A DNA stretch of 64,000 nucleotides, taken from the NCBI GenBank assembly GCA_040216765.1, contig JAVJON010000066.1:20661-84660 (forward strand). Direction: 5' to 3'. The notes beneath the pieces are model-generated. The model did not search any database, had not been told where the DNA came from, and worked only from the letters and a program-made list of their open reading frames with translations. Position numbers and translations under genes: made by a program. This document shows positions 25,757-42,447 of the stretch, piece after piece (the first letter of the stretch is position 1; the number at the start of each line of letters is the position of its first letter). Source of the DNA: Sneathiellaceae bacterium (GTDB taxonomy: Bacteria > Pseudomonadota > Alphaproteobacteria > Ferrovibrionales > Ferrovibrionaceae).

Positions 25757-25784
25757 GCGGTTTCGCATTTTTTTTCGAAACCGC
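25757..25784 (+). terminator. 9-bp-stem hairpin with T-rich loop downstream of the PepSY gene
   Basis: GCGGTTTCG-CATTTTTTTT-CGAAACCGC read directly. The T run sits in the loop rather than after the stem, so it is not a textbook terminator. Confidence 0.3.
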
Positions 25785-25879
25785 TCCGACGAATACCGCA
25801 TTTCAGTCGATCCGGATCACTTTGATTGGGGTGCCGGGTCGTTCGGACAGAGTTCGACATCGGATATTTGGACCGCCTG

Positions 25880-26749: not shown

Positions 26750-26791
26750 CCGGGCACAGAACGCCCCTCGCTTTCCCTGTCCGATTCCCAA

Positions 26792-27667
26792 TTATCCACG
26801 GCAACCATAGAAACCGCGATAGCCGACTCGAAGACCGGCGTCCAGTTCCAGCAGCAGATCGACTTCCTGCCGACCCGCCATCGGGTCCAACGCCGCTTCA
26901 CCCAAAGGCGGAGAAATACGCATTGCGATACCAATCGCCGCCAGTGTCAGTCCGTTCGCCGATCCAGCGGCATTGCCTGCATCGACTCGAACCAGGTCAC
27001 CGCTGAGCTTGACCAGTCCCGCTCCGTTTTCGCCGACGGCAAGAACCGGGGGGCTGTCCTCCGTATAGGTGAAGAAGCAGGCGGCGCCGTCGGGGAAGAG
27101 CCTGGCGACTTCGTCCGGCGTCATGAATTCCGGATCGAGAACTGCGACCTCGGCACTCGACAGCGCATCGGCCAGGGTTCCGACCTCTTTGGGCTCGCTT
27201 GCCCCGGATTCCGCGCCGTCGCCCGAGTCATCGATGCTGTCGATCAGATACCGCATCTCGGCGATTTCCTTGTCCTGCGCGAAGATGATTTCGTCAGCCA
27301 GCTTGCGCACCCGGGGGTCGGAAATATTCGCTCGGCTAGACGTCATGATGGCAATCGAATGATGCGGGATCATTGCACGCATGAAACTCGTGTCACCAAC
27401 GGTGACCTGGCTGCGGACCAGCCACAAGGATACACCGAAAGCCAGAAGGGCACCGGCAAAGATGGCGGCATTGAGCGTCTTGTTCGAATACATTGAGAGC
27501 ATGAACCCGAGCATGATCACCGCCATCGTCGCGCCCATGACCAAAGCCATGTAAAGACGGGTTTCCGAGAAAAAAACATGGGTCCACAAATATGTATTGA
27601 GGTACATCAATCCGAACATGACCACAGTGGACGTGAATATCATCGCGGCAAACCGGCCGTAAGCCAT
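26792..27667 (-). CDS. membrane DUF305-domain protein fused to an uncharacterised C-terminal domain
   Basis: 3-4 TM helices, then a DUF305-like half-domain (MIPHHSIAIMTS...DPRVRKLADEIIFAQDKEIAEM), then ~140 aa of unrecognised sequence. Start at the ATG at 27667. Confidence 0.7.
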   Translation of the reverse strand: MAYGRFAAMIFTSTVVMFGLMYLNTYLWTHVFFSETRLYMALVMGATMAVIMLGFMLSMYSNKTLNAAIFAGALLAFGVSLWLVRSQVTVGDTSFMRAMIPHHSIAIMTSSRANISDPRVRKLADEIIFAQDKEIAEMRYLIDSIDDSGDGAESGASEPKEVGTLADALSSAEVAVLDPEFMTPDEVARLFPDGAACFFTYTEDSPPVLAVGENGAGLVKLSGDLVRVDAGNAAGSANGLTLAAIGIAMRISPPLGEAALDPMAGRQEVDLLLELDAGLRVGYRGFYGCRG

Positions 27668-28166
27668 TCTGCCGCTCCCGTTTTTTGGTTCTTCGCTGTG
27701 GTTTGTCACGCCGTACCGACCTTTCACTTGACGCATTCGTATTACGTCATCAGATAACGCGCGTGCGCGACTTCCGGTTCCATAGCAGCGTTCAGCGGTC
27801 CTGGGGCCCCCACGATCCATCGACCGTCGAGTTTTTTGCCACGGGCCGTCGCGCATTCTCCCCCATACATGCATGTCCACAAAGACAGTGGGCTACGCGA
27901 CGACAGAAGACGTCGGAGGACCTCCACCGCACAGGGGCGTCACCACCCATTACACAGAAAACCTGCAACTCAAAAATAATATTGTTTAACCATATTGTTA
28001 TTAAACTGGCGCGATCGCATCATTCTTGCCCTATTTACTGCAGACATTTATTTGCGTATTATGGTTGCATCGACTGGCATCTGACCGGTGCATTGTTTCC
28101 GTCTCTCTCGCTATTCCCCCCTTCTGTGTAGTGGGACGGTTTCAGTAAGACGACGGGCCTCACCTC

Positions 28167-28808
28167 ATGAAAATATCCGACAGTTTCTCTGGTGCCGCTC
28201 TGTCTTTGGTGCAACGCAGGCGCAAAGTGGCGCTTCTTTTCATTGTCTTCGGAACCGTGTCTTGGGCTTTTCTTAACGATCACCATTTTCCAGGACGCAC
28301 TTATGAGCAAATCACCGGGACTGTTGGCATAGTTTTAATTGGAGTATGTGTTCTGGGTCGCGTCTGGTGCTCCTGGTTCATATCCGGAAGAAAGAAAAAG
28401 GAACTGGTTCAAGAAGGACCTTTTTCTATGTCAAGAAATCCATTGTATATGTTCTCTATCATCGGCGCATCCGGAGCGGGATTAACAGCCGGAAGTATTG
28501 TTCTGACTATATTAATCTTTTCAAGCGTTCTATTTGTATTCAACTCAGTTGTGACTCATGAAGAGAATTTTCTTTTAAATCAATTTGGCGATAAATATAT
28601 TTTATACTGCGCCACCGTCCCGAGATGGGGTATTCGTATGTCCAGTTTTTCTTTCTATGTAGAATATTTCACCAACAAACCAAATGGTAAATTGTTTTTG
28701 ATCTCGATCAGAGATTCATCTCTATTTCTCCTTTGTATTCCCCTATTCCGGGCCATCGATGAAGTCACGCACACCGGATTTTTTCGCCCTGTTTTCGCCC
28801 TGTATTAG
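28167..28808 (+). CDS. ICMT/PEMT-family membrane methyltransferase (CzcN/NccN-like)
   Basis: Multi-TM protein with the family motif ...LVQEGPFSMSRNPLYMF... Strikingly AT-rich codon usage compared with every neighbour. Confidence 0.7.
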   Translation: MKISDSFSGAALSLVQRRRKVALLFIVFGTVSWAFLNDHHFPGRTYEQITGTVGIVLIGVCVLGRVWCSWFISGRKKKELVQEGPFSMSRNPLYMFSIIGASGAGLTAGSIVLTILIFSSVLFVFNSVVTHEENFLLNQFGDKYILYCATVPRWGIRMSSFSFYVEYFTNKPNGKLFLISIRDSSLFLLCIPLFRAIDEVTHTGFFRPVFALY

Positions 28809-29036
28809 ACCCTGTGCCTAGAGCATGATCACCTGGGCCGGCAACATACCGTGAGTTACAGCATAACGTGAGTTGATGAGGTAGTTGTTGGTGGGAGTTG
28901 ATCCGGCAGCGTTCCGATGCACCATCAGAGTGCCTCGCGGTCGCGTTCCTGGACAGTCTCAGCAGATATCTGAGCTTGGCGAACAGCTGTTCGAATGGGT
29001 GTTCAGCCCCGGCATGTGGTAGATCCGAACTCCCGA

Positions 29037-29777
29037 TTAGCCAATTCGACCGAGGGCCGGGAACAGGTCCAGCATCCAGTAGGAGAACTCTGCAAGGCGG
29101 CCGGTCATCATGGCGAGCCCCATCAGCACGAGCACTCCTCCCGCCACCACCTGGAGCGCCGCGCCGAGCCGACGGACCCTCTTGAGTCTGACGGTCAGAC
29201 CGTCGGCGAAAATGGCGGTCGCGAGGAACGGCACGCCAAGGCCCATTGAGTAGATCGCGAGAAGCGCCACCCCATCGGCAACGCTCGCGCCCGTGGCACT
29301 GACCGTCAGGATAGCGCCAAGGATCGGGCCGATGCAGGGCGTCCAGCCAAACGCAAAGGCGAGGCCGAGGACGTAGGCATAGATCGGCCGCCCGCCAGGC
29401 AGATCCACATGATAGCGCCAGTCGCGCAGCAACCAGCCCGGCCGGAAGGCACCCATCATGACGATTCCGAAGGCCATCACCACGGCGCCTGCGATGAGAG
29501 ACAGTTCGTAGCTGTTGGCGATCAGCAACTGCCCCAGCGCCGTCGCGCTGGCGCCCAGGACAACGAATACCGTGGTGAACCCCAGCACGAAGTTTATGCT
29601 GAGCCCGATGGCCGGGAGCCGGGCCCGGAACGCACTGCCGCTTGCCGGCGCCTGGCCCGGCCCACCGGCGATGTAGGAAATGTATCCCGGGACGAGCGGC
29701 AGGACGCAGGGCGACAGGAACGAGACCGTTCCCGCGGCAAAAGCCGTGAGCAGGCCGACGTTTGACAGTTCAAACAT
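29037..29777 (-). CDS. ccdA: CcdA/DsbD-core thiol-disulfide electron-transfer membrane protein (ScsB-core-like)
   Basis: 246 aa, 6 TM helices, both conserved Cys motifs (FLSPCVLPLVP and GWTPCIGPILG). Confidence 0.85.
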   Translation of the reverse strand: MFELSNVGLLTAFAAGTVSFLSPCVLPLVPGYISYIAGGPGQAPASGSAFRARLPAIGLSINFVLGFTTVFVVLGASATALGQLLIANSYELSLIAGAVVMAFGIVMMGAFRPGWLLRDWRYHVDLPGGRPIYAYVLGLAFAFGWTPCIGPILGAILTVSATGASVADGVALLAIYSMGLGVPFLATAIFADGLTVRLKRVRRLGAALQVVAGGVLVLMGLAMMTGRLAEFSYWMLDLFPALGRIG

Positions 29778-29798
29778 GCAGGAGCCCGGCCACCGGCG

Positions 29799-30599
29799 TC
29801 ATTCCGGTGCCCGCGCTGCGGCGATCCTGGCCTGCAGCGTGGTCAAGTCGGTGGCACCGCGCAGGATCGCCTCGCCGATCACGAAACCGGGCGTGCCTGT
29901 GATTCTCAGTTTTCGGGCAAGCTCCATGTTGCGCTCGATCGACGCCGCAAGCTTCGGATCGCCCATATCCCGCTGCAGTCGATCGATATCGATGCCAAGG
30001 CTTTCAGCAAGAGCGAGCGCGGTGTCGCGGTCGATCCCACCGGTTTCCGCCATCATCGCCTTGTGGAAATCCACGTAGCGGCCCTGGCGCCGGGCGGCCA
30101 GTGCGGCCTTGGCGGCAAACTCGGAATCGGCGCCGAGGATCGGCAACTCCTTGTAAACGATGCGCAGGTTCGGATCTGCCGCCTCCGCCTCGATCATCAC
30201 CGGAGCGACCCGGCGACAGTATGGGCAGTTGTAGTCGAAGAACTCGACCAGTGTGACATCGCCATCCGGATTGCCGCCGACCGGATCGTCCGTTGCTTGC
30301 AGCAGCGCCTCGCCTTCCGCCGCAAGAGCCTGCCTGGCCGCGCGCTCCTGCTCGGCAAGCTGCCGTTGCTCCAGGCCTCTCATCGCTTCCACGATCACCT
30401 CTGGATGCTCCAGGAGATAGGCCCGAACCCGAGCGCCGAAATCGGTCTCGCCAATCGCCACCGCCCCCTCGCCCGCCGGCGTCTCCTGACGAAAGCCCGG
30501 ATCCAGGAGCAGCCAGGCGCCAATGCCGGCAACCGCGATCAGAAGCACTGCAAGCGCACCAACCAGACCGGACCGCCGGCTTCTATGTTCAACCTTCAT
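29799..30599 (-). CDS. membrane-anchored DsbA-family thioredoxin-fold protein, CPYC active site (ScsC-like)
   Basis: N-terminal anchor, a helical linker and a DsbA fold with FFDYNCPYCRR. Confidence 0.85.
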   Translation of the reverse strand: MKVEHRSRRSGLVGALAVLLIAVAGIGAWLLLDPGFRQETPAGEGAVAIGETDFGARVRAYLLEHPEVIVEAMRGLEQRQLAEQERAARQALAAEGEALLQATDDPVGGNPDGDVTLVEFFDYNCPYCRRVAPVMIEAEAADPNLRIVYKELPILGADSEFAAKAALAARRQGRYVDFHKAMMAETGGIDRDTALALAESLGIDIDRLQRDMGDPKLAASIERNMELARKLRITGTPGFVIGEAILRGATDLTTLQARIAAARAPE

Positions 30600-30671
30600 T
30601 TCCCTGCTCCGAATGGTTGATCGAATAACATGCAGCTACCGGCCGGCTTTCCAGATAACCCAGGTACATTT

Positions 30672-31466
30672 TCATGTATTTTCATCCCAGAGGAATTCAG
30701 TAATACGGTTCCACCAGCCCGGATTCTGGTTCTGCGATTGGCTGTGGGCATTATTCGCGACACCGTTCAGGTAAAGGACAAGATTGAGCGATTTGAATTC
30801 CACACCATGGAAATTCGCCGCCCAGGTCCCATCGGGACCGATCACATGGGTGACGGCGCCATGAATCTGCTGGCCGTCCGGTGTCGGGCTGAAACTGTGG
30901 CCAAAGGCTTCGGCGAGCTTCCGCGTCCTGCCTTCCAACGCCGGGTCGGTCGTGGCCAGGAAGCGCCAGTTCGCCGGATCCAATCCATGCGCGGGACCGA
31001 AAGCCTCGCGGACCTCCGCCGTGTCGTTGGACGGATCGGTCGAAACGCTCAGGAACTGCACGAGCTCCCGCATGGGGGTGTCATTCACCAGGGCCTGTAC
31101 TTCAGCGATCTTATCGGCATGCAAAGGACAGATGTCCGGGCAGGATGCATAAATGAAGTGTAAAACAATGAGTTTACCAGTATAGTCTGAAAGTCTTGCG
31201 AGTTTCCCTTGTGCGTCAGTAAGCTCGAAGCTCGGTGCCGGACGGCCGATGACCTGGAAATAAGGTTCCTTGTCCGCCATGACTTTGTCCAGATCGCCGC
31301 CGGGATGATTTGCAGCGACCGGCGTGACGGCGAGGAGAACTGGAACAAGGAAGAGACTTGCCGACAATAGGCGTGTGAATCCACGCGTTCCGGCCTGTTG
31401 CCGCCGACGCGATGGCAACCCGTTGACGATCATCATTGCCATGCCGTCACGCCTCCGGTTTTTCAT
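30672..31466 (-). CDS. SCO1/SenC-family copper chaperone / thiol-disulfide protein
   Basis: CxxxC motif (FIYASCPDICPLH), a downstream conserved His and a thioredoxin-like fold. Alternative start at 31442 (MAMMIV...) would remove the 20-nt overlap with the upstream gene. Confidence 0.85.
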   Translation of the reverse strand: MKNRRRDGMAMMIVNGLPSRRRQQAGTRGFTRLLSASLFLVPVLLAVTPVAANHPGGDLDKVMADKEPYFQVIGRPAPSFELTDAQGKLARLSDYTGKLIVLHFIYASCPDICPLHADKIAEVQALVNDTPMRELVQFLSVSTDPSNDTAEVREAFGPAHGLDPANWRFLATTDPALEGRTRKLAEAFGHSFSPTPDGQQIHGAVTHVIGPDGTWAANFHGVEFKSLNLVLYLNGVANNAHSQSQNQNPGWWNRITEFLWDENT

Positions 31467-31713
31467 CGTCCGGCGTCGATCTCGATCCGTGCAGGCCCTT
31501 GCACATGCACAGCCCGGCTCCGCACATTGCCAGGCAGGGCAGAACGCTGAGCAGGATCGGTGCGACCCCGATTGCGGACAGCCAGCCCCAGTTCAGCGCC
31601 ACCCCAACGCCGGCGGCGGCGAAACCGGACAGAAGCCATACCCGTCTGTCCCGCAGCCACAACCATCGAATCCGCCCGTAGGTCAAGTCGCTTGAAAGCA
31701 TAGGGTTGGTCAT
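31447..31713 (-). CDS. small 2-TM Cys-rich inner-membrane protein
   Basis: 88 aa with two hydrophobic helices and the cluster LPCLAMCGAGLCMCKG. Sits tightly between tlpA-like and SCO genes. No family recognised. Confidence 0.5.
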   Translation of the reverse strand: MTNPMLSSDLTYGRIRWLWLRDRRVWLLSGFAAAGVGVALNWGWLSAIGVAPILLSVLPCLAMCGAGLCMCKGLHGSRSTPDDEKPEA

Positions 31714-31716
31714 CCT

Positions 31717-32250
31717 CTAGTCCTCTTTGTCGCTCGACGTGACTATTCGCTCGAAGAAGGAAATCATCTCGGCCGTATCCCACTCGGCAGGCCCCACCAG
31801 GCGCGCAAGTTCGCGGCCTTGTCTGTCGATGAGCAGGGTGGCGGGCAGGCCAGGGATTCCCAGCGACCGCGCGGCCGTACCGCGCCTGTCGACGAGGATC
31901 TTCAGATGCTCGATGCCGGTATCGTCGTAGAACCGGCGGACGACGTCCGGGCCCGCCCGATCGATCGAGAGCGCCAGAACCTCGAATGCAGGGCCGCCGA
32001 GGCGCGCCTGCAGCCGATCCAGGGTCGGCATCTCCCTTCGGCAGGGGCCGCACCAGGTGGCCCAGACATTGAGCAGAATGACCTTGCCGCGCCAGGCAGA
32101 GAGATCGTGCCGCTTGCCCGCTTCGTCCTCGAAGGACATCTGCGGCACGTCCCGCGGCTCTGGATGCAGCTGCATGCCGACGGGGTCGGCAGCCCGGGCC
32201 TGAGGCACGACAAGCAGCATCGCGACCATGCCGACAATGAGGAACCGCAT
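31717..32250 (-). CDS. TlpA-family periplasmic thiol-disulfide oxidoreductase (ScsD-like)
   Basis: Signal peptide and NVWATWCGPCRREMP active site. Confidence 0.85.
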   Translation of the reverse strand: MRFLIVGMVAMLLVVPQARAADPVGMQLHPEPRDVPQMSFEDEAGKRHDLSAWRGKVILLNVWATWCGPCRREMPTLDRLQARLGGPAFEVLALSIDRAGPDVVRRFYDDTGIEHLKILVDRRGTAARSLGIPGLPATLLIDRQGRELARLVGPAEWDTAEMISFFERIVTSSDKED

Positions 32251-32254
32251 GGGT

Positions 32255-32854
32255 CTACTCCTTCGGCTCCGCGCGCAGGCGGGACAACAGGGGAAAGATC
32301 TGCTTGAAGACGAGGTCCTGCGTCAGCGGGCCGGCATGCCTGTAGGCAATCCTGCCGTCAGGGGCGACGATGTAGGTTTCCGGCACCCCATAAACTCCCC
32401 AGTCGATGGCGACCCGGCCATCGAGATCCGCCCCGGTGCGGGCATAGGGATCGCCGAGCCGGTCCAGGAAGGCAGCGGCTTCGGCGGGCTTGTCCTTGTA
32501 GTTGAGACCGAAGACGGGAACCGTGCCGCCGTTTGCCAGCCGCATCAGGATTGGGTGCTCGGCCCGACAGGGTATGCACCAGGAGGCGAATACATTGACC
32601 AGGGAAACCTGACCCTCCAGATGCGCACTGGACAGGCCCAGAGCCCTGCCTTGAACCGGCGGCAGGGAAAACTCCGGGACCGGCTCGCCGATCCGGGCGG
32701 ACGGCAGGGCCCTGGGATCGCGGTCGAGGCCCCAGGCCAGCGCGGCGGCAACAAGGGCGAAAACCGCGGCCGGGAGCAGGAAGCGCAATGCCATCCGGTC
32801 CCGCCGCTGTCGCGCGACGGTGCCGACCGCGTCAGCCATCCCGTCCTCCGGCAC
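32255..32854 (-). CDS. DsbE/CcmG-family thiol-disulfide oxidoreductase
   Basis: Membrane anchor, NVFASWCIPCRAEHP active site and the GVYGVPETY motif. The true start may be an internal ATG (32839 or 32794). Confidence 0.85.
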   Translation of the reverse strand: MPEDGMADAVGTVARQRRDRMALRFLLPAAVFALVAAALAWGLDRDPRALPSARIGEPVPEFSLPPVQGRALGLSSAHLEGQVSLVNVFASWCIPCRAEHPILMRLANGGTVPVFGLNYKDKPAEAAAFLDRLGDPYARTGADLDGRVAIDWGVYGVPETYIVAPDGRIAYRHAGPLTQDLVFKQIFPLLSRLRAEPKE

Positions 32855-32996
32855 CCGAACGGGCGAAGAGGTACTTGATCAGCGCCGCTGCGGCGAGAAT
32901 CAGGACCAGGACGACAAGCAGTCCGACAAGCCCCATTCCCCAACCCATCATCCCGCCCATCATGCAGTTCGTTCCATCCATCATGTCTTGCTCCAT
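32832..32996 (-). CDS. tiny Met-rich single-TM protein
   Basis: 54 aa: MEQDMMDGTNCMMGGMMGWGMGLVGLLVVLVLILAAAALIKYLF... Located in the copG/dsbE gap on the operon strand. Coding status is uncertain. Confidence 0.4.
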   Translation of the reverse strand: MEQDMMDGTNCMMGGMMGWGMGLVGLLVVLVLILAAAALIKYLFARSGAGGRDG

Positions 32997-33052
32997 CGGG
33001 CCGGTGGCGGCAGGGCGCCGCAGCCCGTTCAGTTGCTTCCGGGGACGCCCCG

Positions 33053-33493
33053 CTACTCCGTGGCATAGACCCGAGGCGTTTCGGCACCGATCTCGTAGAT
33101 CGTGAACGGTTCCGACTTCCTGCCGCCCATGCCGGGCGAGCCCGACGGCATGCCGGGCAAGGTCACGCCCTTGATGTCCGGCCTCTCGTCGAGGAGGCGG
33201 CGCACCGCCGCGATCGGGACATGACCGCTGACCGCATAGCCGTCGACGAACGCCAGGTGGCAGCCCTGGAAATCGTCGGGGATTCCCGCCTTCCGGCTCA
33301 TCACGACCAGATCGTGGGTTGGCTTGACGTCGACGGCGAAGCCGTTCTCCCGCAGGTAGTCGGCATAGTTCTCGCAGCAATCGCATTGCGGGTTCTTGTA
33401 GAGCGTGGCGCTTTCCTTCGGCTCGGCAGCGAGGAGCGGCGCCGAAATGGCAATACCGAGCCCGAAGGCGGCGATGGTCAGGAGCTTTCTCAT
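33053..33493 (-). CDS. copG: CopG-like DUF411 periplasmic copper-binding protein
   Basis: Signal peptide, CDCC motif (NPQCDCCENYADYL) and the conserved C-terminus GVTLPGMPSGSPGMGG. Start at the ATG at 33493. Confidence 0.85.
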   Translation of the reverse strand: MRKLLTIAAFGLGIAISAPLLAAEPKESATLYKNPQCDCCENYADYLRENGFAVDVKPTHDLVVMSRKAGIPDDFQGCHLAFVDGYAVSGHVPIAAVRRLLDERPDIKGVTLPGMPSGSPGMGGRKSEPFTIYEIGAETPRVYATE

Positions 33494-33519
33494 GAAATCA
33501 GTCCTTGTTGAGGGAAAGG

Positions 33520-34953
33520 TCAGGCGACGCGGATGACGCCCATCATCCCGGCCGCCTGGTGCTCGAGGATGTGGCAATGGAACATCCAGTCGCCCGGATT
33601 GTCGGCGACGAAGGCAATCTCGACCCGCTCCCGCGGGGCCATCAGGACGGTGTCCTGCCATTCGCGCCGGGCCGTCGGGGTGCCGTTTCGCGAGATCACC
33701 CGGAACGAATGGCCGTGCAGGTGGATCGGGTGAGGCCAGGCGGTCGCGTTCGTCATCGCGATCACATGCGATCCGTCGCGCCGCAATGTCAGGAACGGCT
33801 CCAGCACATGGCCATCGGCGGCCACACCGTTGACGAACCACATGCCGCCTGAGCGCATCATGTTCATCATCGAGCCCATCTGGCCGCCCATCTCCTGCAT
33901 GACCATCTGGCCCATCATCCCGCCGTTGAAGGTCACAGCGTGCCGTTCGGCATTGCCCAGGTCCGGTTCGGGCAGAGGATTGGGCGCCAGGGCGACCGCG
34001 CCTTCCGCCCGCGCCTCCCTGACCGGCTTGCCGTCATAGACGAACGCGGTCAGACGGTAGGCAAGACGCGGATAGAAGCGGTCGACAAGGTCGATCCGGT
34101 CGCCGGCGGTCCCGGTCATGTCGATGATCAGATCGGCCCGCATTGCCGGGCCGAGGACGACCAGGCCGTCCTGCGGTTCGTGCGAGGTGACCGGCTGCCC
34201 ATCCAGCGCGATGACCTGCGGCCGTAGCGCTGCGAAATCGAGACCGAAGATCCGCGCGTTGGCGGCATTGATCAGGCGCAGACGGATGCGCTCGCCCGGC
34301 CGTACCGACAATGGTTCCGGCATGCTGCCGTTGATGGTCAGGACGTTCCCGAACCTGCCGCCATGGCTCATGTCGTGACGGTTGCCGAAATCGTCACTGA
34401 TCTCGGCCGCCTCTGTCAGACGCCAGTCGTCGAGGATCCAGGTGATCTCGCGATCGACCTGCGGCGGCTGCGGTTCCTCGACGATGAGCGGACCATAAAG
34501 GCCGCGCCCAACCTGCTCGAAACTGCGCTGATGCGGGTGGTACCAGAACGTCCCGGCATCGACCGCGTCGAACTCATAGACGAAGCCCTCGCCCGGCCCG
34601 ATCGGCCGCTGCGTGAGATGCGGCACCCCGTCCATCGCGTTCGGGATCCGAAGGCCGTGCCAATGCACCGTAGTGTCTTCGGCAAGCCCGTTCTCGACAT
34701 GGATGCGGAGGCGCTGGCCCTGCCGGACCCTGATTTCCGGGCCGGGCAGACGATCGTTGAAACACCAGACTGCCGTCTTGCCGTAGGGCTGCGCAACCAG
34801 CTGGGCGGAGCCTTTCCCGGCACGCAACCGGACCTCCTGTACTGGCGCCGCCCCGGCCTGCGCGAGGCCTGGCAATGGCAGTAGAAGACCGGTAACTGCT
34901 GCTGCAGAGGACGCGAGGAACGAACGCCGCGTCGGCGTGATCGGACCGGACAT
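33520..34953 (-). CDS. Tat-exported three-domain multicopper oxidase
   Basis: Twin-arginine signal (TPTRRSFLASSAAAV) and Cu-ligand motifs HWHG, WYHPH, HPIHLHGH, HCHILEHQAAGMM. Confidence 0.9.
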   Translation of the reverse strand: MSGPITPTRRSFLASSAAAVTGLLLPLPGLAQAGAAPVQEVRLRAGKGSAQLVAQPYGKTAVWCFNDRLPGPEIRVRQGQRLRIHVENGLAEDTTVHWHGLRIPNAMDGVPHLTQRPIGPGEGFVYEFDAVDAGTFWYHPHQRSFEQVGRGLYGPLIVEEPQPPQVDREITWILDDWRLTEAAEISDDFGNRHDMSHGGRFGNVLTINGSMPEPLSVRPGERIRLRLINAANARIFGLDFAALRPQVIALDGQPVTSHEPQDGLVVLGPAMRADLIIDMTGTAGDRIDLVDRFYPRLAYRLTAFVYDGKPVREARAEGAVALAPNPLPEPDLGNAERHAVTFNGGMMGQMVMQEMGGQMGSMMNMMRSGGMWFVNGVAADGHVLEPFLTLRRDGSHVIAMTNATAWPHPIHLHGHSFRVISRNGTPTARREWQDTVLMAPRERVEIAFVADNPGDWMFHCHILEHQAAGMMGVIRVA

Positions 34954-35093
34954 GAGAGACTCTTCCTGGAAGCCGTGGTCCGCAGTCGCCCGGCGCTGCC
35001 CTGGGCATGCCTAGGGAGGCAACTGCACATGCCGCCGAGATCGATGCCTTCTCGGGGCCGAATGGAACACCGCCACCCGAATGGATCGCGGCG

Positions 35094-35432
35094 TCAGCTC
35101 AGGAAGGAAGGTCTCGGTGGATGCGGTTCGGGCGCCGTGGGAGCGCCGGTCAGCCAAAGGAAGCGGGCAGCGAAATGCCGCATCGGGGCTTGGGCAAAGG
35201 GCGTGGCCATATCGGCCATCACGCCCTGCGCCGGGACCGTGCAACTGAAGTCGCAGGCAAGCCTGTCGCCGTCTTCCCCGCTCGCGCAAGCGTCGCAACC
35301 GCTCATCGAAACGGCATCGGCGGGGGCACAATTGTCTCCGGAGCCGCTCGCCATCGTCGTGGCTTCGGCGGATGCCGTCACCAGGAACAGGGCGACTACG
35401 ACACTGGCGACTATGCTAAGAACGCGCTTCAT
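35094..35432 (-). CDS. small exported C-x3-C / Pro-tail protein (DUF2946-like, tentative), first gene of the MCO-copG-redox operon
   Basis: 112 aa: signal peptide MKRVLSIVASVVVALFLVTASA, an Asp/Cys-rich middle (SGCDACASGEDGDRLACDFSCTVPAQG) and the tail FLWLTGAPTAPEPHPPRPSFLS. Confidence 0.6.
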   Translation of the reverse strand: MKRVLSIVASVVVALFLVTASAEATTMASGSGDNCAPADAVSMSGCDACASGEDGDRLACDFSCTVPAQGVMADMATPFAQAPMRHFAARFLWLTGAPTAPEPHPPRPSFLS

Positions 35433-35681
35433 GGCGAAGTCAGACTAGTCTTGCGGCGGGGCCGCGTCGATTGCCATTCTGCCGCAGTGCACTTGATTGT
35501 GAAGGTGACGAGACCCCCGATGCGGACGCAGCATCGTTGAGTGCGCCGCACCGAAAGATGCCGCGCTCGTGGGACCTCGGATCGCGGATGAACCACCGGC
35601 CGGACCTGGCGCCACGAACCGCCGCAACCGGCCCCTTGCTCCGGCGCAGTTCATCGGCTAATAGAGGCGCCCGCGTGGCGA

Positions 35682-35758
35682 CGGAGTGTAGCTCAGCCTG
35701 GTAGAGCACTGTCTTCGGGAGGCAGGGGCCGGTGGTTCGAATCCACTCACTCCGACCA
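35682..35758 (+). tRNA. tRNA-Pro (anticodon CGG)
   Basis: Manual cloverleaf. Acceptor CGGAGTG/CACTCCG. D-arm GCTCAGCCTGGTAGAGC. Anticodon stem CTGTC/GGCAG with loop TTCGGGA (CGG). T-arm GGTGG-TTCGAAT-CCACT. Discriminator A and encoded CCA. Confidence 0.9.
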
Positions 35759-35842
35759 GCGCGCCCGGAACGCCGGCCCGGCAGGACCGGCGGCGCATCC
35801 GGGCCCTGGTCGGGGCCACCCTCGCCGCGCTAGGCTGATGTC

Positions 35843-36376
35843 ATGACGATTTCCCCGGAATATCTGGAACAGCAGAAAGCGCTGCACCAGAACCCGAACT
35901 ACGGCGTTGCCTCGCTGCAATATGCCGACCTGGTGATTGCCGTCGCCGACCAGGTGAAGGCGAAGAGCATCGCCGACTATGGCGCGGGCAAGTGCAACCT
36001 CCGCAGGAAGATGCAGGAACTGGGGCGCGGGGAATTCGCCTACCACCCCTATGACCCGGTGTTTCCCGAATACGGGACACCGACGCCGGCCGACCTGGTC
36101 TGCTGCATCGACGTGCTGGAGCACATCGAACTGGATTACCTGGACGCGGTGCTGGCGGACCTGCAGCGGATCACCGTGAAGGTCGGCGTCTTCACCATCC
36201 ATACCGGCCCGGCGGTCAAGCACCTGCCCGACGGGCGCAACGCCCACCTGATCCAGCAGCCGCCGTCCTGGTGGCTGCCGCGGCTTTGCCGGCATTTCGA
36301 GATCGTGCACCTGCAGCGCACGCCGGGCGGCTTCTGGATCCTTGTGGAACCGCTGGCCGCCAGCGGCACCGCCTGA
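35843..36376 (+). CDS. class I SAM-dependent methyltransferase
   Basis: 177 aa with a SAM-binding loop (IADYGAGKC) and a Methyltransf_11/23-like core (VCCIDVLEHIE). Confidence 0.7.
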   Translation: MTISPEYLEQQKALHQNPNYGVASLQYADLVIAVADQVKAKSIADYGAGKCNLRRKMQELGRGEFAYHPYDPVFPEYGTPTPADLVCCIDVLEHIELDYLDAVLADLQRITVKVGVFTIHTGPAVKHLPDGRNAHLIQQPPSWWLPRLCRHFEIVHLQRTPGGFWILVEPLAASGTA

Positions 36377-36410
36377 CGGCCGCCCCCCTCCCGCGCTTCA
36401 GCGAGGTCAC

Positions 36411-37307
36411 ATGGCGATCACCTTCCACCGCGAGATGAACTTCCGCTATGGCGAGGCGGACCGGATGTCGCCGCTGGTGCGCCGTGTCATCGCCGAGAAT
36501 CCATCGGCCTTCACCTTCCATGGCACCGGCACCTATATCGTCGGCGACCCGCAGGGGAAGATGGCGGTGATCGACCCGGGCCCCGCCCTGCCCGCCCATC
36601 TGGAGGCGCTGCTGGCGGCGACTTCCGGCGGCCAGGTCAGCCATATCCTGATCACCCATACCCATGAGGACCATTCGCCGCTGGCGGTGGACCTGGCGGC
36701 CGCCACCGGCGCGCCGATCTACGGCTTCGGCCCGCATCCCACGCCGCCGAAGGGCGCGCGGTCGGAGGAAGCGGGCGACATGGTGTTCCGGCCCGATGTG
36801 CGGATCGGCGATGGCGGGATGATCCGCGGCGAGGGCTGGACCTTCGAGGCGATCCACACGCCGGGCCATATCTCCAACCATCTCTGCTTCGCCCTGCAGG
36901 AGGAGAAGGCGCTGTTCCCCGGCGACCATGTGATGGGCTGGTCGACCTCCGTCGTCTCGCCGCCCGACGGCAGCATGGCCGACTATTTCGCCAGCCTGCG
37001 CAAGCTGCTGCCACGCGACGAGTCCGTCTACTATCCCACCCACGGCCCGCAGATCCCCGACCCGCTGGACCATGTGCAGGCGTTCATCGCCCATCGCGAG
37101 GCCCGCGAGGAGCAGATCCTGGCCTGCGTCGCCGACGGCCAGGCCACGATCCCGGAGATGGTGGCCCGGATGTACAAGGATGTGCCGGCCCACCTGCACC
37201 CGGCGGCGGCACGCTCGGTCCTTGCCCACCTGATCCACATGACCGGCGACGGCCGGCTGGCGGCCGACCCGGAACCCGGCGAGGCGGCCCGCTACAGCCT
37301 GCCATAG
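36411..37307 (+). CDS. MBL-fold metallo-hydrolase
   Basis: HxHxDH motif (ILITHTHEDHSP) plus downstream His/Asp ligands. Start at the ATG at 36411 (MAITFHRE...). Confidence 0.85.
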   Translation: MAITFHREMNFRYGEADRMSPLVRRVIAENPSAFTFHGTGTYIVGDPQGKMAVIDPGPALPAHLEALLAATSGGQVSHILITHTHEDHSPLAVDLAAATGAPIYGFGPHPTPPKGARSEEAGDMVFRPDVRIGDGGMIRGEGWTFEAIHTPGHISNHLCFALQEEKALFPGDHVMGWSTSVVSPPDGSMADYFASLRKLLPRDESVYYPTHGPQIPDPLDHVQAFIAHREAREEQILACVADGQATIPEMVARMYKDVPAHLHPAAARSVLAHLIHMTGDGRLAADPEPGEAARYSLP

Positions 37308-37386: not shown

Positions 37387-37418
37387 TTGACTCCGTACTA
37401 TGGTACGGCCTCTAGCAT
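37387..37418 (+). promoter_or_regulatory. mer-type promoter/operator: -35 TTGACT, 19-20 bp spacer holding the dyad CCGTAC-N4-GTACGG, -10-like TAGCAT
   Basis: TTGACTCCGTACTATGGTACGGCCTCTAGCAT read directly. The Tn501/Tn21 merOP, as I recall it, is TTGACTCCGTACATGAGTACGGAAGTAAGGT. GGAGG lies at 37424-37428 and the ATG at 37436. Confidence 0.65.
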
Positions 37419-37435
37419 GCCCTGGAGGCCATGAC

Positions 37436-38104
37436 ATGAAACGCACAACCATCGGTCGCGCAGCAGCATTGACCCGGGTCAATGTAGAGACCATCCGCTT
37501 CTATGAACGACGCGGCCTGATCGCGCAGCCGCCGCGCCCCACCGATGGCGGGTCGCGGGACTATGGCCGGGAGGTCATCGACCGGATCCTGTTCATCCGC
37601 CAGGCACAGGATATCGGTTTCTCGCTGCGCGAGGTTGCGGACCTGCTGGCGCTGCGCAACGAACCCGGCGCCGATTGCGCGGAGATCCGCGTGCGCACCC
37701 AGGCCAAACGCGACGAGGTCCAGGCCAAACTCGGGCATCTGACGCGGTTGCGCGATGCGCTGGACCTGTTGATCGCCAACTGCCCGGGCAAAGGTGCGCT
37801 CGACGCCTGCACAATCCTGGAAGCCATGGCACACCGGTCTGGAACCTCCGCGAAACATCGGGAACAGAGCATGGAAACCACGACCCTGAAGATCGAGGGC
37901 ATGCATTGCCATGCCTGCGCCCGGACGGTCCAGGCGGTGCTGCAGCGGGCGACAGGTGTGCTTCGGGCGGAGGCGTCGTTCGACAAGCGACAAGCCCGGA
38001 TCCTGCACGATCCGCAGAAAGCCGGCGCGGCGGAGCTGGCGGCCCTGATCGAGAACTGCGGCTACGCGGTCGAGATTCTTCCACCCCAGGCCAATGCACC
38101 GTGA
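37436..38104 (+). CDS. merR: MerR-family metalloregulator (Hg-type Cys triad) fused to a C-terminal HMA (MerP/CopZ-like) domain
   Basis: [18 protein letters not shown] (MerR has [15 protein letters not shown]). Cys81, Cys116 and Cys125 have the same spacing as MerR Cys82/117/126. From aa 146 the sequence [18 protein letters not shown]... is an HMA fold. Confidence 0.85.
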
Positions 38105-40554
38105 CCGCGACCGCTCCACTTGCCGATGGACTGCGGCCCCTATGGCCGGCAGAACCGGGCGGACGGCCGGACCGGGCACGGCTGCGCGCGCGGATCGGCG
38201 GTCTGCATTGCTCGCTCTGCACCGGCACCATCGAGAAGGCTCTTGGCCGCCAGGCGGGTGTCCATCGCGTCTCTGTCAGCCTGACGCATGAGCAGGCGCT
38301 GATCGAGTTCGACCCGCGGGCGGCGAACCCCGAGGCGTTGCTGCGCATCCTGCAGGACATCGGCTACACCATCCACGACCCGAACAAGCTGCGCCCCTTT
38401 GATGAAGAGGAGCGCGAACTGGTCCTGGAGGGGCGGCGCTTCCTGATCGCGACGATCTGCAGCCTGCTGTCGATCGCGCTGATCACGGAGCCGGGCGGGC
38501 CCCTGTCCATTGTTCTGCCCGGATTGGCGACAGCCAGCCTGACGGCCTTCGTGTTCCTGGTCCTGCGGGCCAGGGGCGTGCTGCCGGCCCTGGCCGGTGC
38601 GGCCTGCCTGGGCGCGTCGGCGACCGGCCTGCTGCTGCTGGCCGGCGGCGGGCATCTCAGTGTCTTCGCGCCATGGCTGACCGGCGCCCTCGCCGCGATT
38701 CTGGTGTTCGGTGTCGCCCGGCACATCCTGTTCATGGCAGCCCAGGCCCTGCGCCGTGGCATCCTCAACCAGCATGTCCTGCTGGAGGCCGGCGCGATGG
38801 CGGGCATCGTCGGGGGCCTGATCGGCCTGGCGCTGGACCGGCCCGGCTATCCGACCGCCCCGTTCTTTGCTGTGGCTACGATGGTCGTCACCTATCACAT
38901 CTTCTCGGAATGGCTGTCGCTGATCGTCAAGACCCGCTCGTCGCAGTCGGTCAAGCGTCTGCTCGACCTGCAGCCCGACACCGCCCATCTGCTGAGGCAG
39001 GGGACGGAACAGGTTGTACCGGTCCGCGACCTCGCCATTGGCGATCTGCTGCGCGTCCGGCCGGGCGAGCGCATCCCGGTCGACGGCACGATCACCGAGG
39101 GGCGTTCCGCCGTCGACCGGTCGCTGGTGACCGGCGAACCGATACCCGTTGCCTGCCGGACCGGCGACTCGGTGATCGGCGGCACGGTGAACGGCACCGG
39201 AAGCCTGGTGGTGCGCGCCGACAGCATCGGGCAGGACAGCTTCCTGCAGCGCGTCGCCCGGGAAATCGAGCATGCGCGTGCGCTGAAGCCGGGCCTGCTG
39301 CATCTCGTCGACAGGGTGCTCCGCATATACACCCCCACGGTGCTGACTATTGCCCTTCTCGCCTTTGCGGGCTGGGCGGCCCTGCCACTGCTTCTCGGCC
39401 TGGCGCCGGACCTGAAACGGGCCGTTTTCGCCAGCCTGAGCGTGCTGGTGATGGGCTATCCCTGCGCGGTCGGGATCTCGGCGCCGCTATCGATCGTCCG
39501 CGGCGCCGGCGAGGCGGCGGAGAAGGGCATCCTGATGCGCACCGGCGAGGCCTTTCAGGGATACCGCCTAGTGCGGCAGATCGCCTTCGACAAAACCGGA
39601 ACATTGACCGAGGGCCGGCCGAAGCTCCACGAGGTCGAGTCCTGTACCGGCGATCGCGAGGAACTGCTGGCCCTGGCCGCGGCAGCCGAGGCTGCCTCTG
39701 AGCATCCGCTCGCCCGCGCGGTGATCGAGGCCTGTTTCGAGGCCGGCCTGACGCCGCCGGCGGTCGACGGCTTCGAGGCCCTTCCCGGGGAAGGGATCAG
39801 GGCGCATGTCGCTGCGGCCGAGATCCTGATCGGTCGCCCCGATCTCATGCAGGCGCATGGCATCGCCGTTCCGGACCGGCTGCGTCGTCGTGTCGAGGTG
39901 CTCCAGGACCGGGGACGAACGGTGATCCTTGTGGCGCGCGAGGGCATGCTGCTGGGGCTGCTGGCCCTTGGCGACAGTTTGCGCCGGGACGCACAGGAGA
40001 CTGTCGAAAGGCTGCGCACCGGCGGCATCCGGCCGATTCTGATCACAGGCGACAACCGGCGAGCCGCCGACCGCCTGGCACGTGAACTCGGCATCGATGA
40101 GGTCCATGCGAACGTTCTGCCCGGGCAGAAGGCCGCACTGATCCGTGATCTCCAGGCTGGCGGCCGGACAGCCATGGTCGGCGACGGAATCAACGATGCA
40201 CCCGCTCTCATGCAGGCGGATATCGGCATCGCCATGGGCTCGGGCACCGACATCGCGATCGATTCCGCCGACATCATCATCCTCAACGACCGGCTCGCCA
40301 GTATCCCTGCGGCGCAGGAAATCAGCCGCAGCGGCTACCGCAAGATGCTCCAGAACATCTCGCTGGCCTTCCTGTTCAACGGCATCGGTGTGCCGCTGGC
40401 GGCGACCGGGCTGGTCTATCCGGTGTGGGCCATGGTCGCCATGGCTGCCAGCGTGACGGCAATCTTCGTCAATTCGCTCTGGCGGCGCCCCGGGCTGTTT
40501 CTCGACGCGATCGGAAGTGTCGGCGCTCCGGCGATCGGGAGCGGTCCCGCTTGA
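38101..40554 (+). CDS. P1B-type heavy-metal-translocating ATPase with one N-terminal HMA domain and an atypical TM4 motif YPC
   Basis: [10 protein letters not shown] (HMA), [29 protein letters not shown]4 reads [12 protein letters not shown] instead of CPC/CPH/SPC. The GTG start at 38101 overlaps the merR stop (GTGA). Confidence 0.9.
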
Positions 40555-41276
40555 CCGGCGCCGAAGCGCTCCTGCAGGACATCTCGTCCCTCTCGCCGCT
40601 TGCCCTGGCACTTGTCGCCGCAGCGGGGCTGGTGGTCGGCGTCGCTCCAAGTTCCTTTCCGCTTCTGTCCGTGGCCATCGGTCTGACCGTCCAACAGCGG
40701 GAAAGCAGGCTGGCGGGCGGCTGGCGGGCCAGCCTGCGGCTCACCGCCGGATTCGCGCTGGGCATCGCCCTGGTCGATGCGGCATTGGGCGCCCTGTTCG
40801 GCCTGGCCGGCTTTGCTGTCCTCAGAATTCTGGCGAGCTATCTGGCACTGGCCTACCTTCTGATCGCGGCGTTCACCGCCTTTGCCGGTCTGGCGCTGCT
40901 TCGTGTCGTCATCGTCTCGCTGCCCGTACTGCAGCCCGCGGCGCAGCCTGCCGGCGGCTTCCTGCGAAGCCTGCTCCTGGGCCTGCCGTTCGGACTGTCG
41001 ACCTGTCCAGCCTGCACACCTTTGCTCCTGCCCGTGCTGGCCACCGCCGCGGCGACCGGCGACCCGGCCCTGGGCGCCGCCCTGCTGGGCATGTTCGGTA
41101 TCGCCCGCGGCATCCCGCTGGTGGTCGCGGGCCTGGCGGCGCGCAGCCTTTTCCGCACCGACCGCTCCGCCAGGTTCGTTGTCATCGCCGAGCATATTGC
41201 CGCCGCCTTGATGTTCGGCGCGGCGGCCTACTTCGCCTATCAGGCGTTGCGCTATGCGGGATGGCTCGCCCCGTAG
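40551..41276 (+). CDS. CcdA/DsbD_2-like 6-TM membrane protein with a single CPAC motif
   Basis: Topology and sequence resemble the CcdA at 29037-29777. The first conserved Cys motif is replaced by APSSFPLL and the second by [13 protein letters not shown] putative TTG start overlaps the ATPase stop (TTGA). Confidence 0.7.
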
Positions 41277-41375: not shown

Positions 41376-42068
41376 GTGACCTCATCCTTCGACCGTGTTC
41401 GGACACTGTTCCTGGCCTGTAGCGCAGTCTTGCTGCTGCTGGTTTATTGGGCGGCGCCGGCCAATGCCATGGTCGATGGCCGGCATGCCGTGCACATGAC
41501 ACTCTCGACGGCGGCCATGACCTGCCACCCCGACAATGCGGCCACAGCTGACAATCATCCCGCGGGCGACCCTGCCGAAGAAGGCGCGGCCGCAGCGGAC
41601 CAGGACGGGGATCATCACGGCGGCGGCGCACACCGGGACACAGGCTCCTGCTGCGCGGTCGGCTGCCTCTCCGGTCTCCTGCCCGCCGCCCCGACCGAAG
41701 CGCAGCGGGCAGCCGCCTCCGCGACTGGTCGCGATGGCCCGACAGGCATCCGCCGCGGGCCGGCTTCGCTTCCCCTTATCGCCCTCCTCGCGCCGAGTCT
41801 GAGCCGACGCCGGCCTGAGTCCGCCCTCCGCGGGCACAGGTCGGCCGGGAGTACGGCGCTATCGGCGCCGAAAAGCCCGCCGCCGCTTTCGCCTTGGCGA
41901 CCATCCCGCGGCCGTTCTGGCCGTAAGGCGGGATTCCGCCTGGCAGCGAAGTCGCACCTGGAAGCCCGGCTCCAGCACAGGATCACGGCGGCTTGCCGAA
42001 TGCCGGCACCCTCCGTGACAGGCGCTACTGCGCGTATCTGCGCGACAATGGATGGATCGACCCGATGA
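41376..42068 (+). CDS. small exported His-rich CC-x3-C protein (paralog of 23984-24388); the 3' extent is probably artefactual
   Basis: GTG start; MTSSFDRVRTLFLACSAVLLLLVYWAAPANA; DGDHHGGGAHRD; SCCAVGCLSGLLP. The homolog ends ~50 aa after this motif, whereas this ORF runs on for ~130 aa of low-complexity sequence. Confidence 0.4.
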   Translation: MTSSFDRVRTLFLACSAVLLLLVYWAAPANAMVDGRHAVHMTLSTAAMTCHPDNAATADNHPAGDPAEEGAAAADQDGDHHGGGAHRDTGSCCAVGCLSGLLPAAPTEAQRAAASATGRDGPTGIRRGPASLPLIALLAPSLSRRRPESALRGHRSAGSTALSAPKSPPPLSPWRPSRGRSGRKAGFRLAAKSHLEARLQHRITAACRMPAPSVTGATARICATMDGSTR

Positions 42069-42100: not shown

Positions 42101-42280
42101 ATGAAGCTGGCCTGTAGCGGCGCAATGGCGTGCGCGATGCTGGCCCTGACAATGGGAGCCCCGCAGGCCGCTGGAGGGCATGGCGGCGGGGCCGACCACG
42201 ACATGCCCGCCGGACTGACGGGGCAGGCGGCCGACGTGGCCGATGCCGACCGGACGGTGGAAATCGATCTGGCGGCCATG
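42101..42280 (+). pseudogene. 5' fragment of a cupredoxin gene (paralog of 23155-23733)
   Basis: MKLACSGAMACAMLALTMGAPQAAGGHGGGADHDMPAGLTGQAADVADADRTVEIDL parallels ...VQAAGSHDGDAHQAGSTGLMGQAAAASKADRTVDIVL. Homology then stops. Confidence 0.5.
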
Positions 42281-42447
42281 TGCCGGTCGCGACGGTCCGC
42301 CGGCTGCTCGACGAAAGGCCGGGCATCGCGGGCGTGACCTTGCCCGGCATGCCGAACGGATCGCCGGGCATGGGCGGACGCAGGTCGGCCCCGTTCCAGA
42401 TCTACGAAATCGGTCCCGCCCCCATGCGGATCTATGCTGTCGAGTGA
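42274..42447 (+). pseudogene. 3' fragment of a copG/DUF411 gene
   Basis: GHVPVATVRRLLDERPGIAGVTLPGMPNGSPGMGGRRSAPFQIYEIGPAPMRIYAVE matches the last 57 aa of the intact DUF411 protein at 33053-33493. It is in a different frame from the cupredoxin fragment. Confidence 0.65.

Follow-up and report, generated by a model that had tools for sequence, protein, structure and literature searches.

Textbook bacterial resistance to mercury is unusual among metal resistances: instead of being expelled by a pump, Hg(II) is taken into the cell, where MerA reduces it. In mer operons of the Tn501 and Tn21 type, MerR is encoded divergently from its targets (MerT, MerP and MerA) and acts on a promoter with the -35 hexamer TTGACT and the half-sites CCGTAC and GTACGG in an overlong, 19-bp spacer. 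CueR/CopA, ZntR/ZntA, PbrR/PbrA and CadR/CadA each combine a MerR-family activator and a 19-20-bp spacer with a P1B ATPase as target, often together with an HMA chaperone; a circuit of MerR-family sensor and P1B pump is in itself already known. Here, we focus on a three-gene module found in 64,000 nucleotides of DNA from a Sneathiellaceae bacterium of the Alphaproteobacteria (GenBank assembly GCA_040216765.1, contig JAVJON010000066.1, positions 20,661 to 84,660), the whole of which is called the window below. The module encodes a MerR-like regulator with a fused HMA domain, a P1B-type ATPase and a CcdA-like membrane protein. Its anatomy, the conservation of the regulator with its operator, its gene set and its linkage to mer genes can be read directly from the genomes. 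We put at roughly 0.48 the probability that this widespread, horizontally mobile and so far uncharacterised module handles Hg(II) or another thiophilic metal much like it. The metal, the direction of transport (most likely export) and the role of the CcdA-like protein are what we infer.

Unlike the regulator of mer operons, that of the module is co-directional with its targets and transcribed from its own regulated promoter, it carries or precedes an HMA domain, and it controls a P-type ATPase and a CcdA-like protein. From the four sensor-pump pairs the module differs in a sensor that appears to come from the Hg-MerR branch, in an ATPase with the motif YPC and in a near-constant CcdA-like third partner. 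Our literature search found no description of a mercury-exporting P-type ATPase, of a MerR-HMA fusion or of a unit of MerR, ATPase and CcdA/DsbD, and a broad 2021 survey of mer genes makes no mention of ATPases, efflux or CcdA. What would be new, judging from sequence, is the P1B subgroup, the Hg-type sensor with its fused chaperone and the constant CcdA-derived partner. A P1B ATPase gene followed by a CcdA-like gene also occurs in Mesorhizobium metallidurans. Its CadA, in work by Maynaud of 2014, is said to be a P1B-2 pump with duplicated metal-binding domains, and we know of no MerR(Hg)-type operator for the cadA-ccdA pair. By this P1B-2 description we judged that pair to be of a different family and treat it as an analogy only; both of its genes are co-induced by Zn and Cd (PMC3668242).

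The promoter, regulator, pump and membrane partner

The module of the window is made up of the following features.
37387..37392, plus strand: -35 hexamer TTGACT, from direct sequence reading
37393..37408, no strand: operator dyad CCGTAC-TATG-GTACGG, a perfect inverted repeat and predicted MerR-type site inside the spacer
37413..37418, plus strand: -10-like hexamer TAGCAT, the best -10, from direct sequence reading
37436..38104, plus strand: MerR-like regulator fused to HMA, 222 aa (Pfam MerR_1, MerR-DNA-bind, HMA, MerR)
38101..40554, plus strand: P1B-type ATPase of the 'YPC' subfamily, 817 aa (Pfam E1-E2_ATPase, Hydrolase, HMA; NCBIfam)
40551..41276, plus strand: CcdA-superfamily membrane protein, 241 aa (Pfam DsbD_TM)

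The -35 hexamer is identical to that of Tn501 PmerT (PMC3431237), and together with the half-sites of the dyad it makes the promoter one of Tn501 mer type. Its spacer differs: with CCTC between the dyad and TAGCAT it measures 20 bp as against 19 bp in MerR-type promoters, which narrows the 19-20 bp given in the preliminary description. The 22-nt pattern TTGACTCCGTACNNNNGTACGG has a single match without mismatches in the window, where 0.02 matches would be expected by chance even with 3 mismatches permitted. A conventional sigma-70 scan with 16-18-bp spacers found no promoter at the start of the module, which is no proof of absence because a MerR-type spacer is overlong. The three genes are translationally coupled through GTGA at 38101-38104, where the GTG start of the ATPase gene overlaps the stop of the regulator, and through TTGA at 40551-40554, where the TTG start of the third gene overlaps the stop of the ATPase; the ATPase N-terminus that follows from this start is kept in homologues. 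The mer-like layout and dyad, as well as the coupling by these two overlaps, had been described beforehand and are borne out. The regulator gene truly starts at ATG 37436, which has a GGAGG 8 nt before it; the longest open reading frame begins at an ATG at 37400, inside the operator spacer. The -10 hexamer ends only 17 nt before ATG 37436, which leaves room for no more than a very short mRNA leader. The start codon apparently lies 6-11 nt past the -10 in several related loci, an approximate figure given that starts are taken from BLAST alignment starts, and if these positions are real the transcripts of such loci would be nearly leaderless.

In the regulator, a helix-turn-helix, a dimerisation helix and a metal loop (residues 1 to about 135) are followed by an HMA domain (residues about 146-215; DNA about 37871-38104), which carries GMHCHAC and is 46% identical to free-standing 71-aa HMA proteins in related loci. 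Pfam E-values are 6.8e-17 for MerR_1, 3.2e-16 for MerR-DNA-bind and 2.8e-10 for MerR. The best NCBIfam model is that of Hg MerR, TIGR02051, with 111.6 bits (equivalog cut-off 150.85), followed by CueR with 100.4 bits, and MerR is the top NCBIfam model for all three members of the regulator family tested. Since bona fide alphaproteobacterial MerRs flanking merTPA fail this cut-off as well, at 138.0 and 115.3 bits, we regard it as conservative. Among solved regulator structures the top match is the Tn501-type MerR 5crl (79 bits), with Bacillus MerR at 74 bits, CueR at 72-73, CadR at 64 and PbrR at 53. Cys81, Cys116 and Cys125 align with the Hg ligands Cys82, Cys117 and Cys126 of Tn501 MerR (phmmer against 5crl; MAFFT) and are kept in the regulator-family rows displayed in the MAFFT alignment, and the recognition helix VNVETIRFY is that of Tn501 MerR. 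From the structures of CueR and ZntR, one position holds a Ser in sensors of monovalent ions such as CueR. At this position the regulator has a Cys, and its loop is one residue longer than that of CueR in the alignment, opening with CPG as CueR's does.

The mean identity of the regulator family is 42% to canonical MerR, 40% to the type-B regulators described below, 37% to ZntR, 37% to alphaproteobacterial MerRs, 35% to CadR, 34% to CueR and 33% to PbrR, in a comparison for which the CueR, ZntR, CadR, PbrR and Tn501 references were sequences entered by hand and not taken from database records. A neighbour-joining tree with the same references, which carries no support values, places the family as sister of canonical MerR. 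Descent of the sensor from Hg-MerR is thus supported, as far as sequence can speak to it, by the helix, the half-sites, the three cysteines, the identities and the tree. A MerR with Hg-type cysteine spacing fused to an HMA domain had been proposed, and Pfam and the alignment agree; of the phylogenetic placement asked for in the preliminary description, the affinity to canonical MerR comes out in identity and tree alike, with the tree lacking support values. The spacing itself had been taken as a hallmark of Hg sensors, which it is not: PbrR, with Cys79, Cys114 and Cys123, has the same 35/9 spacing (PMC3431237), and the spacing is therefore no proof of Hg specificity.

The ATPase retains the P-type core (FDKTGTLT) with actuator and nucleotide domains, and its nearest solved structure is A. 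fulgidus CopA; the P1B-1 CopA proteins of A. fulgidus and L. pneumophila are its best match in structure and sequence, and it shares with them the helix spacing of the motifs, an N-terminal HMA domain and the DKTGT core. Its similarity to CopA (463 bits) exceeds that to ZntA (310 bits), and its score for the copper-ATPase subfamily TIGR01511 is 453.5 against a cut-off of 397 (555.5 for the generic TIGR01525), whereas the ZntA equivalog scores remain well under their cut-offs (410.8 against 1005; 379 against 1240). However, the residues that line the transport site of CopA are not all retained. The membrane motifs are YPC (453-455), FN (759-760) and MxxSV (M778, M781, S784) in place of CPC, YN and MxxSS, which changes three of the six transport-site residues, and the entry-site Glu is displaced. 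The N-terminal HMA domain carries GGLHCSLC, and further invariant residues of the pump include H208, H225 and H266, histidines near the membrane that CopA does not have, as well as M778 and M781.

YPC, xFN and MxxSV are found in 120 of the 120 best database homologues (63-74% identical), among them a Klebsiella-labelled protein and proteins of Tistrella, Minwuia, Fodinicurvata and Henriciella; source annotations are generic ('cation-translocating P-type ATPase'). The same motifs occur in 84 of 85 homologues from genomic loci, with GGLHCSLC invariant. Described P1B subgroups have the motifs CPC, CPH, SPC, PCP, SCA and CSC (PMC13460109; PMC4932525). The pump does not fit P1B-1, which has the CopA motif set, and the ZntA/CadA group P1B-2 does not fit either, as CPC is missing and the fifth and sixth transmembrane helices read CopA-like, N(x)6FN and P(x)6MxxSV, in a motif without Asp. 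The groups P1B-5, P1B-6 and P1B-7 are set apart by PCP, SCA and CSC. The YPC ATPases appear to be an unnamed, tightly conserved P1B subfamily outside the described subgroups. The non-canonical metal-site residues noticed earlier are therefore real, and placement of the pump in a characterised subgroup, which would have counted against the preliminary description, did not result.

The third protein matches DsbD_TM (PF02683) with 36.7 bits against a cut-off of 27.1. With CcdA and the DsbD transmembrane domain it shares the fold family (hhalign, 97%), a length of about 240 aa and an internal two-repeat layout. It differs in that the catalytic cysteine of the first repeat is a Ser (APSSFP as against SPCVLP), in that its only two cysteines form a CPAC in the second half, straddling the canonical second-repeat cysteine position, and in the absence of a cytochrome c maturation context. 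A canonical CcdA, with one catalytic cysteine per repeat, is thereby ruled out: the superfamily and the CPAC motif of the preliminary description stand, a canonical CcdA does not. In other loci the place of this protein is taken by relatives that are hard to recognise. A BLASTP comparison of the CcdA-like protein of the window with the 'hypothetical' 228-aa partner of other loci was not significant, and profile-profile comparison is therefore required to relate the two. With hhalign, the window type matches the Afipia type at 99.7%, the Methylobacterium type at 98.8% and genuine CcdA of the copper islands at 97.3%; the unannotated 228-aa type matches genuine CcdA at 96.3%. In all, there are four partner subfamilies of the CcdA/DsbD_TM superfamily, each with two invariant cysteines in its own placement: a second-repeat CPxC in the window type (13/13 orthologues) and in the Afipia type (24/24), a first-repeat CPC in another (11/11) and the canonical one cysteine per repeat in the last (29/29). 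Cysteine pairs are also typical of MerT, MerC and MerF. A dithiol in the membrane core would suit a site for thiophilic metals, as in these proteins, or, equally, a relay of reductant.

Distribution of the module and its mercury-gene neighbours

We surveyed one genome per GTDB species and named the neighbouring genes from BLASTP matches to a reference set of proteins drawn from five plasmid loci with annotation; loci are denoted by L numbers. The YPC ATPase was found in 80 species-level loci (62-74% identity) of Alpha-, Beta- and Gammaproteobacteria, Desulfobacterales, Gemmatimonadales and Thermomicrobiales. The regulator adjoins it in 44 of these, 41 of which also have the membrane partner, and at least one CcdA-superfamily partner with two cysteines is present in 68 of the 80. 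The triad is thus conserved elsewhere, and the earlier proposal does not fall on this point. HMA is fused to the regulator (26/44) or encoded by a separate adjacent gene (15/44), together 41 of the 44 regulator loci, and this fusion and fission would tie the sensor to a chaperone. Besides the arrangement of the window (type A: MerR-like regulator, HMA, two-cysteine membrane protein, ATPase) there is a type B, with HMA, ATPase, sometimes an MFS protein, a ZntR-like regulator, a small thioredoxin and CcdA, followed in some cases by MerT-MerP. It is carried by Afipia pOC167, Nitrobacter plasmid 2 and a B. thailandensis plasmid, and its regulators score best against ZntR models. A Klebsiella-labelled contig (L086, 4374-21200) has the YPC ATPase amid genes for a TrwC relaxase and for a transposase and recombinase of the Tn3 family, in a type-B-like set of two HMA genes, MFS, a MerR-family regulator, a DsbD-like protein, a MacB-type ABC exporter and a redoxin; no Pfam families of mer genes were recorded among the genes called in this stretch. 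From its Tn3-family setting, the pump would be mobile into Enterobacteriaceae.

In the related loci, 79 sites combine a TTGACT-like -35 with the dyad at no more than two mismatches. Of these, 38 precede the regulator and 17 directly precede the ATPase, with four before operons for periplasmic HMA and CcdA proteins, two before CcdA-like genes and one before the stand-alone HMA gene at the head of the L082 module. Five more are located at canonical merT/merC promoters, one upstream of a canonical merR, and 11 precede no recognised gene. The consensus of 62 module promoters is TTGACTCCGTAc-N4-GTACGGagngTAnnnT. Of these 62, 58 have a spacer of 20 bp, compared with 19 bp at all five canonical merT/merC promoters. 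Alphaproteobacterial mer operons that lie beside many modules have another half-site, CTGTAG-N4-CTACAG, seen at the merT-merR intergenic regions of L008, L016, L020, L021, L034, L048 and others and different at two positions from the Tn501-type half-site of the neighbouring module. In none of the 80 loci does the regulator occur together with a canonical MerR of beta/gamma type. Distinct operators and the lack of co-occurrence suggest that the paralogous MerR circuits are insulated against cross-talk.

In some genomes the regulon extends beyond three genes, as extra copies of the operator in L056, L047 and L055 indicate. In L056 (4413-9480), operator and -35 recur before two FtsX/MacB-type permease genes and an ABC ATPase gene, and a divergent copy faces an MFS gene about 550 bp away (2580-3875, minus strand). 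Two of the 11 orphan sites are thus the ones that precede the MacB-type ABC exporter and the MFS gene of L056. An IS110-like transposase gene (4874-6103) separates the operator that faces the MFS gene from the one at 6210.

The module is frequently linked physically to merT, merP, merA and merB. merA lies within 10 kb in 27 of the 80 loci and merT or merP in 33, counts that are lower bounds as many contigs are short. Seven of these loci (L022, L026, L030, L053, L062, L066 and L082) have merA as the immediate same-strand neighbour of the module. The merA genes were examined in seven loci and are genuine, carrying GGTCxNxGCVPSK as well as LSCC at the C-terminus. An N-terminal HMA domain is missing from many of these linked enzymes, which are about 475 aa long. 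In a Desulfobacteraceae metagenome-assembled genome (L053, 8500-13920), one operon behind the operator CAGTAC-N4-GTACGG encodes a MerR-like regulator, HMA, a CcdA-like protein, the YPC ATPase and MerA; neither merT nor merP was seen in it, and the pump set occupies the usual place of the mer transport genes. The order in L082 is merA, operator, HMA, CcdA-like, ATPase, operator, merR, merT and merP, and on the Afipia and Nitrobacter plasmids regulator, thioredoxin, CcdA, MerT and MerP are found beside the pump.

This is not the picture which the window alone had given. As stated in the preliminary description, the window has no mercuric reductase and no mer transporters: tblastn of all 64 kb with MerA, MerB, MerC, MerD, MerT and MerP found none of these genes, the sole matches of MerP and MerA being the HMA domain of the regulator, and a mer operon with merA and merT, merP, merC or merF in one unit is therefore not what the window holds. 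The departure from classical Hg resistance logic that had been read into this absence does not survive the comparison, with complete mer operons often adjoining or enclosing the module, which seems to be an adjunct of Hg reduction; the absence of mer genes looks like a peculiarity of this window. A different oxidoreductase also recurs near the module, a 447-aa NAD(P)/FAD disulfide oxidoreductase present in L005 (12231-13574), L024 (8521), L027 (3329), L031 (19473), L045 (15671), L062 (16131), L068 (19954) and L083 (4842). It scores best against the NCBIfam model of MerA, with 317 bits where the cut-off is 454, and the L005 reference has no C-terminal CC.

Candidate metals and the direction of transport

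If the metal is Hg(II), the module could work as follows. A dimer of the MerR paralogue would sit on CCGTAC-N4-GTACGG within the promoter and hold Hg(II) through Cys81 of one subunit and Cys116 and Cys125 of the other. Loaded in this way, it would underwind the 20-bp spacer and switch transcription on as MerR does, underwinding being the established mechanism of MerR (PMC3431237), and the activation would cover its own gene and the two coupled genes. The fused HMA domain, elsewhere the product of a separate small gene, may act as a cytoplasmic metallochaperone for the N-terminal HMA domain and the entry site of the ATPase, and perhaps also serves MerA enzymes without an HMA domain of their own. 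The receiving pump, with its remodelled transport site of Tyr-Pro-Cys, Phe-Asn and Met-x-x-Ser-Val, would move the metal out of the cytoplasm: with HMA partners in the cytoplasm and a cytoplasmic N-terminal HMA domain, delivery would be from the cytoplasmic side, and transport hence export. The CcdA-like protein might aid the pump by binding metal and handing it on at the membrane or by keeping periplasm-facing thiols reduced. In genomes that also have a mer operon, it would complement reduction by MerA with the rest of the module. In its most specific form, this would be a P-type ATPase system dedicated to Hg(II) transport, the first of its kind, found widely in Proteobacteria and beyond and lodged in many mer operons, in which the MerR paralogue, HMA, YPC pump and dithiol protein export Hg(II) or mono-thiolate Hg species, possibly organomercury cations; this version we hold only tentatively and would not bet on.

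A number of observations weigh against mercury. In 53 of the 80 loci there is no merA inside 10 kb, and the linkage to mer genes is suggestive but not specific because metal-resistance genes of all kinds cluster. The regulator falls short of the TIGR02051 cut-off, and the tree that joins it to MerR is the one without support values. The pump is built on the Cu(I)-type (P1B-1) scaffold, scores above the cut-off of the NCBIfam copper-ATPase subfamily and has a single cysteine in its transmembrane site, where Hg(II) usually favours two thiolates. YPC has been associated with copper in both cases our literature search on such pumps returned, a remark on Sulfolobus CopA and CopAL6, a synthetic metagenomic ATPase whose membership in this family is uncertain. 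In the window, tblastn with the reference set found no P1B ATPase and no MerR-family regulator besides those of the module, which stands next to a copper island. Copper genes (multicopper oxidase, DUF411, SCO, CopB) are present within 10 kb in 16 of the 80 loci, in related Rhodospirillales loci the module lies in or beside copper-handling islands, and in Thalassobaculum, L020 and L057 it continues runs of multicopper oxidase, DUF411, cytochrome c, TlpA, SCO and CcdA genes. The idea of a Hg-type sensor rewired to an efflux pump, put forward in the preliminary description, therefore keeps its first half, the descent of the sensor as seen in sequence; efflux and mercury are the conjectural half, to which the single cysteine and the copper settings are objections.

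Much of this would be accommodated by efflux of Cu(I), Ag(I) or Au(I), in which a drifted regulator would sense one of these monovalent coinage metals, and the YPC ATPase, as a CopA variant, would work with the copper-resistance genes nearby. The proximity of the pump to CopA structures, its TIGR01511 score, the CPG that opens the metal loop and the YPC reported for the Sulfolobus copper ATPase all fit, as do the module's contiguity with copper genes in L001, L020 and L057 and the copper genes at 20-35 kb of the window, where no other P1B ATPase was found. However, a Cys replaces the Ser that selects +1 ions, the loop is longer than that of CueR by one residue, only PbrR is less similar to the regulator than CueR, and the operator is of mer and not of CueR type. 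The transport site of CopA is altered at three of six residues with the entry-site Glu moved, linkage to mer genes (27-33 of 80 loci) is more frequent than to copper genes (16 of 80), and the copper island of the window is a separate lower-GC insertion which ends 1.6 kb short of the module. CopAL6, the only YPC pump tested, raised copper accumulation in copA-less E. coli, and copper resistance fell. We consider a coinage metal unlikely on balance, though it is by no means far-fetched. Efflux of Zn(II), Cd(II) or Pb(II) in the manner of ZntR/ZntA, CadR/CadA or PbrR/PbrA, with the three-Cys site sensing another divalent soft metal, seems improbable. It would agree with the 20-bp spacer, otherwise typical of ZntR promoters, with the cysteine spacing common to PbrR, with the ZntR-like type-B regulators, with the Zn and Cd induction of the Mesorhizobium cadA and CcdA-like genes and with the invariant histidines near the membrane. 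The pump contradicts it, having neither CPC nor the Lys and Asp of the ZntA type in its fifth and sixth transmembrane motifs and being closer to CopA than to ZntA; both the operator and the recognition helix match MerR and not ZntR, CadR or PbrR, the Mesorhizobium CadA, reportedly a P1B-2 pump, belongs to a different family, and the linkage is to mer genes, czc and cad not having been among the neighbours searched for.

Mercury could also be the right metal and move in the opposite direction, if the CcdA-like dithiol protein, alone or together with the ATPase, replaced MerT and MerP to bring Hg(II) to a cytoplasmic HMA domain and on to MerA; the copy in the window would then be an orphan with merA elsewhere in the genome. 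The operon of L053, where the module genes take the place of merT and merP between regulator and merA, has this arrangement, and a free or fused HMA could replace in trans the N-terminal domain that many linked MerA proteins do not have. The cysteine pair kept by all four CcdA-like subfamilies, which recalls MerT, MerC and MerF, and the higher metal accumulation caused by CopAL6 would be in keeping with uptake. Against this, P1B ATPases with a cytoplasmic HMA domain are exporters by established mechanism, more than half of the loci, the 64-kb window included, have no merA nearby and import without reduction would be harmful, and the regulon takes in MFS and MacB-type ABC exporters in some genomes. 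Uptake therefore strikes us as a poor bet next to export. Should export of Hg(II) hold, the module would amount to a second arm of mercury detoxification, beyond uptake and reduction and often placed inside mer operons, and its pump would stand for a new P1B subclass whose transport site has one cysteine. Many plasmid and transposon genes annotated as 'cation-translocating P-type ATPase', 'CcdA' or 'MerR family', including those of the Tn3-family element on the Klebsiella-labelled contig, would thereby gain a function. Moreover, the paired distinct operators would be a natural example of insulation between paralogous MerR circuits, which is of use in the design of biosensors.

Surroundings of the module in the window

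Upstream of the module, from about 18000 to 35760, lies a lower-GC block (0.46-0.66, compared with 0.70-0.74 in the flanks) that ends at tRNA-Pro(CGG), 35682-35758. Its copper-related genes are these.
20274-20972: CopB-like
about 21009-23027: multicopper oxidase
29037-29777: genuine CcdA
30702-31361: SCO
31717-32854: two TlpA genes
33056-33493: DUF411
33520-34953: multicopper oxidase

The block looks like a genomic island integrated at the tRNA and separate from the module, which lies beyond its end at tRNA-Pro. Within it, 28000-28999 is a sharp AT-rich dip with a GC of 0.459.

Two further genes flank the module, the gene of a metallo-beta-lactamase-fold protein upstream (36342-37307) and an open reading frame directly after the CcdA-like gene (41376-42068). 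Neither is conserved beside the module in 85 related loci, and we do not count them as members of the unit. The open reading frame has a signal-peptide-like N-terminus and a stretch rich in His and Cys, with HAVHM, DGDHHGGGAH and GSCCAVGC; it has no Pfam or NCBIfam match and may be spurious. Just downstream of the module, at 42274-42444, a fragment is 63% identical to the C-terminal 57 residues of a DUF411 (CopG-like) protein and looks like a remnant of another copper cluster.

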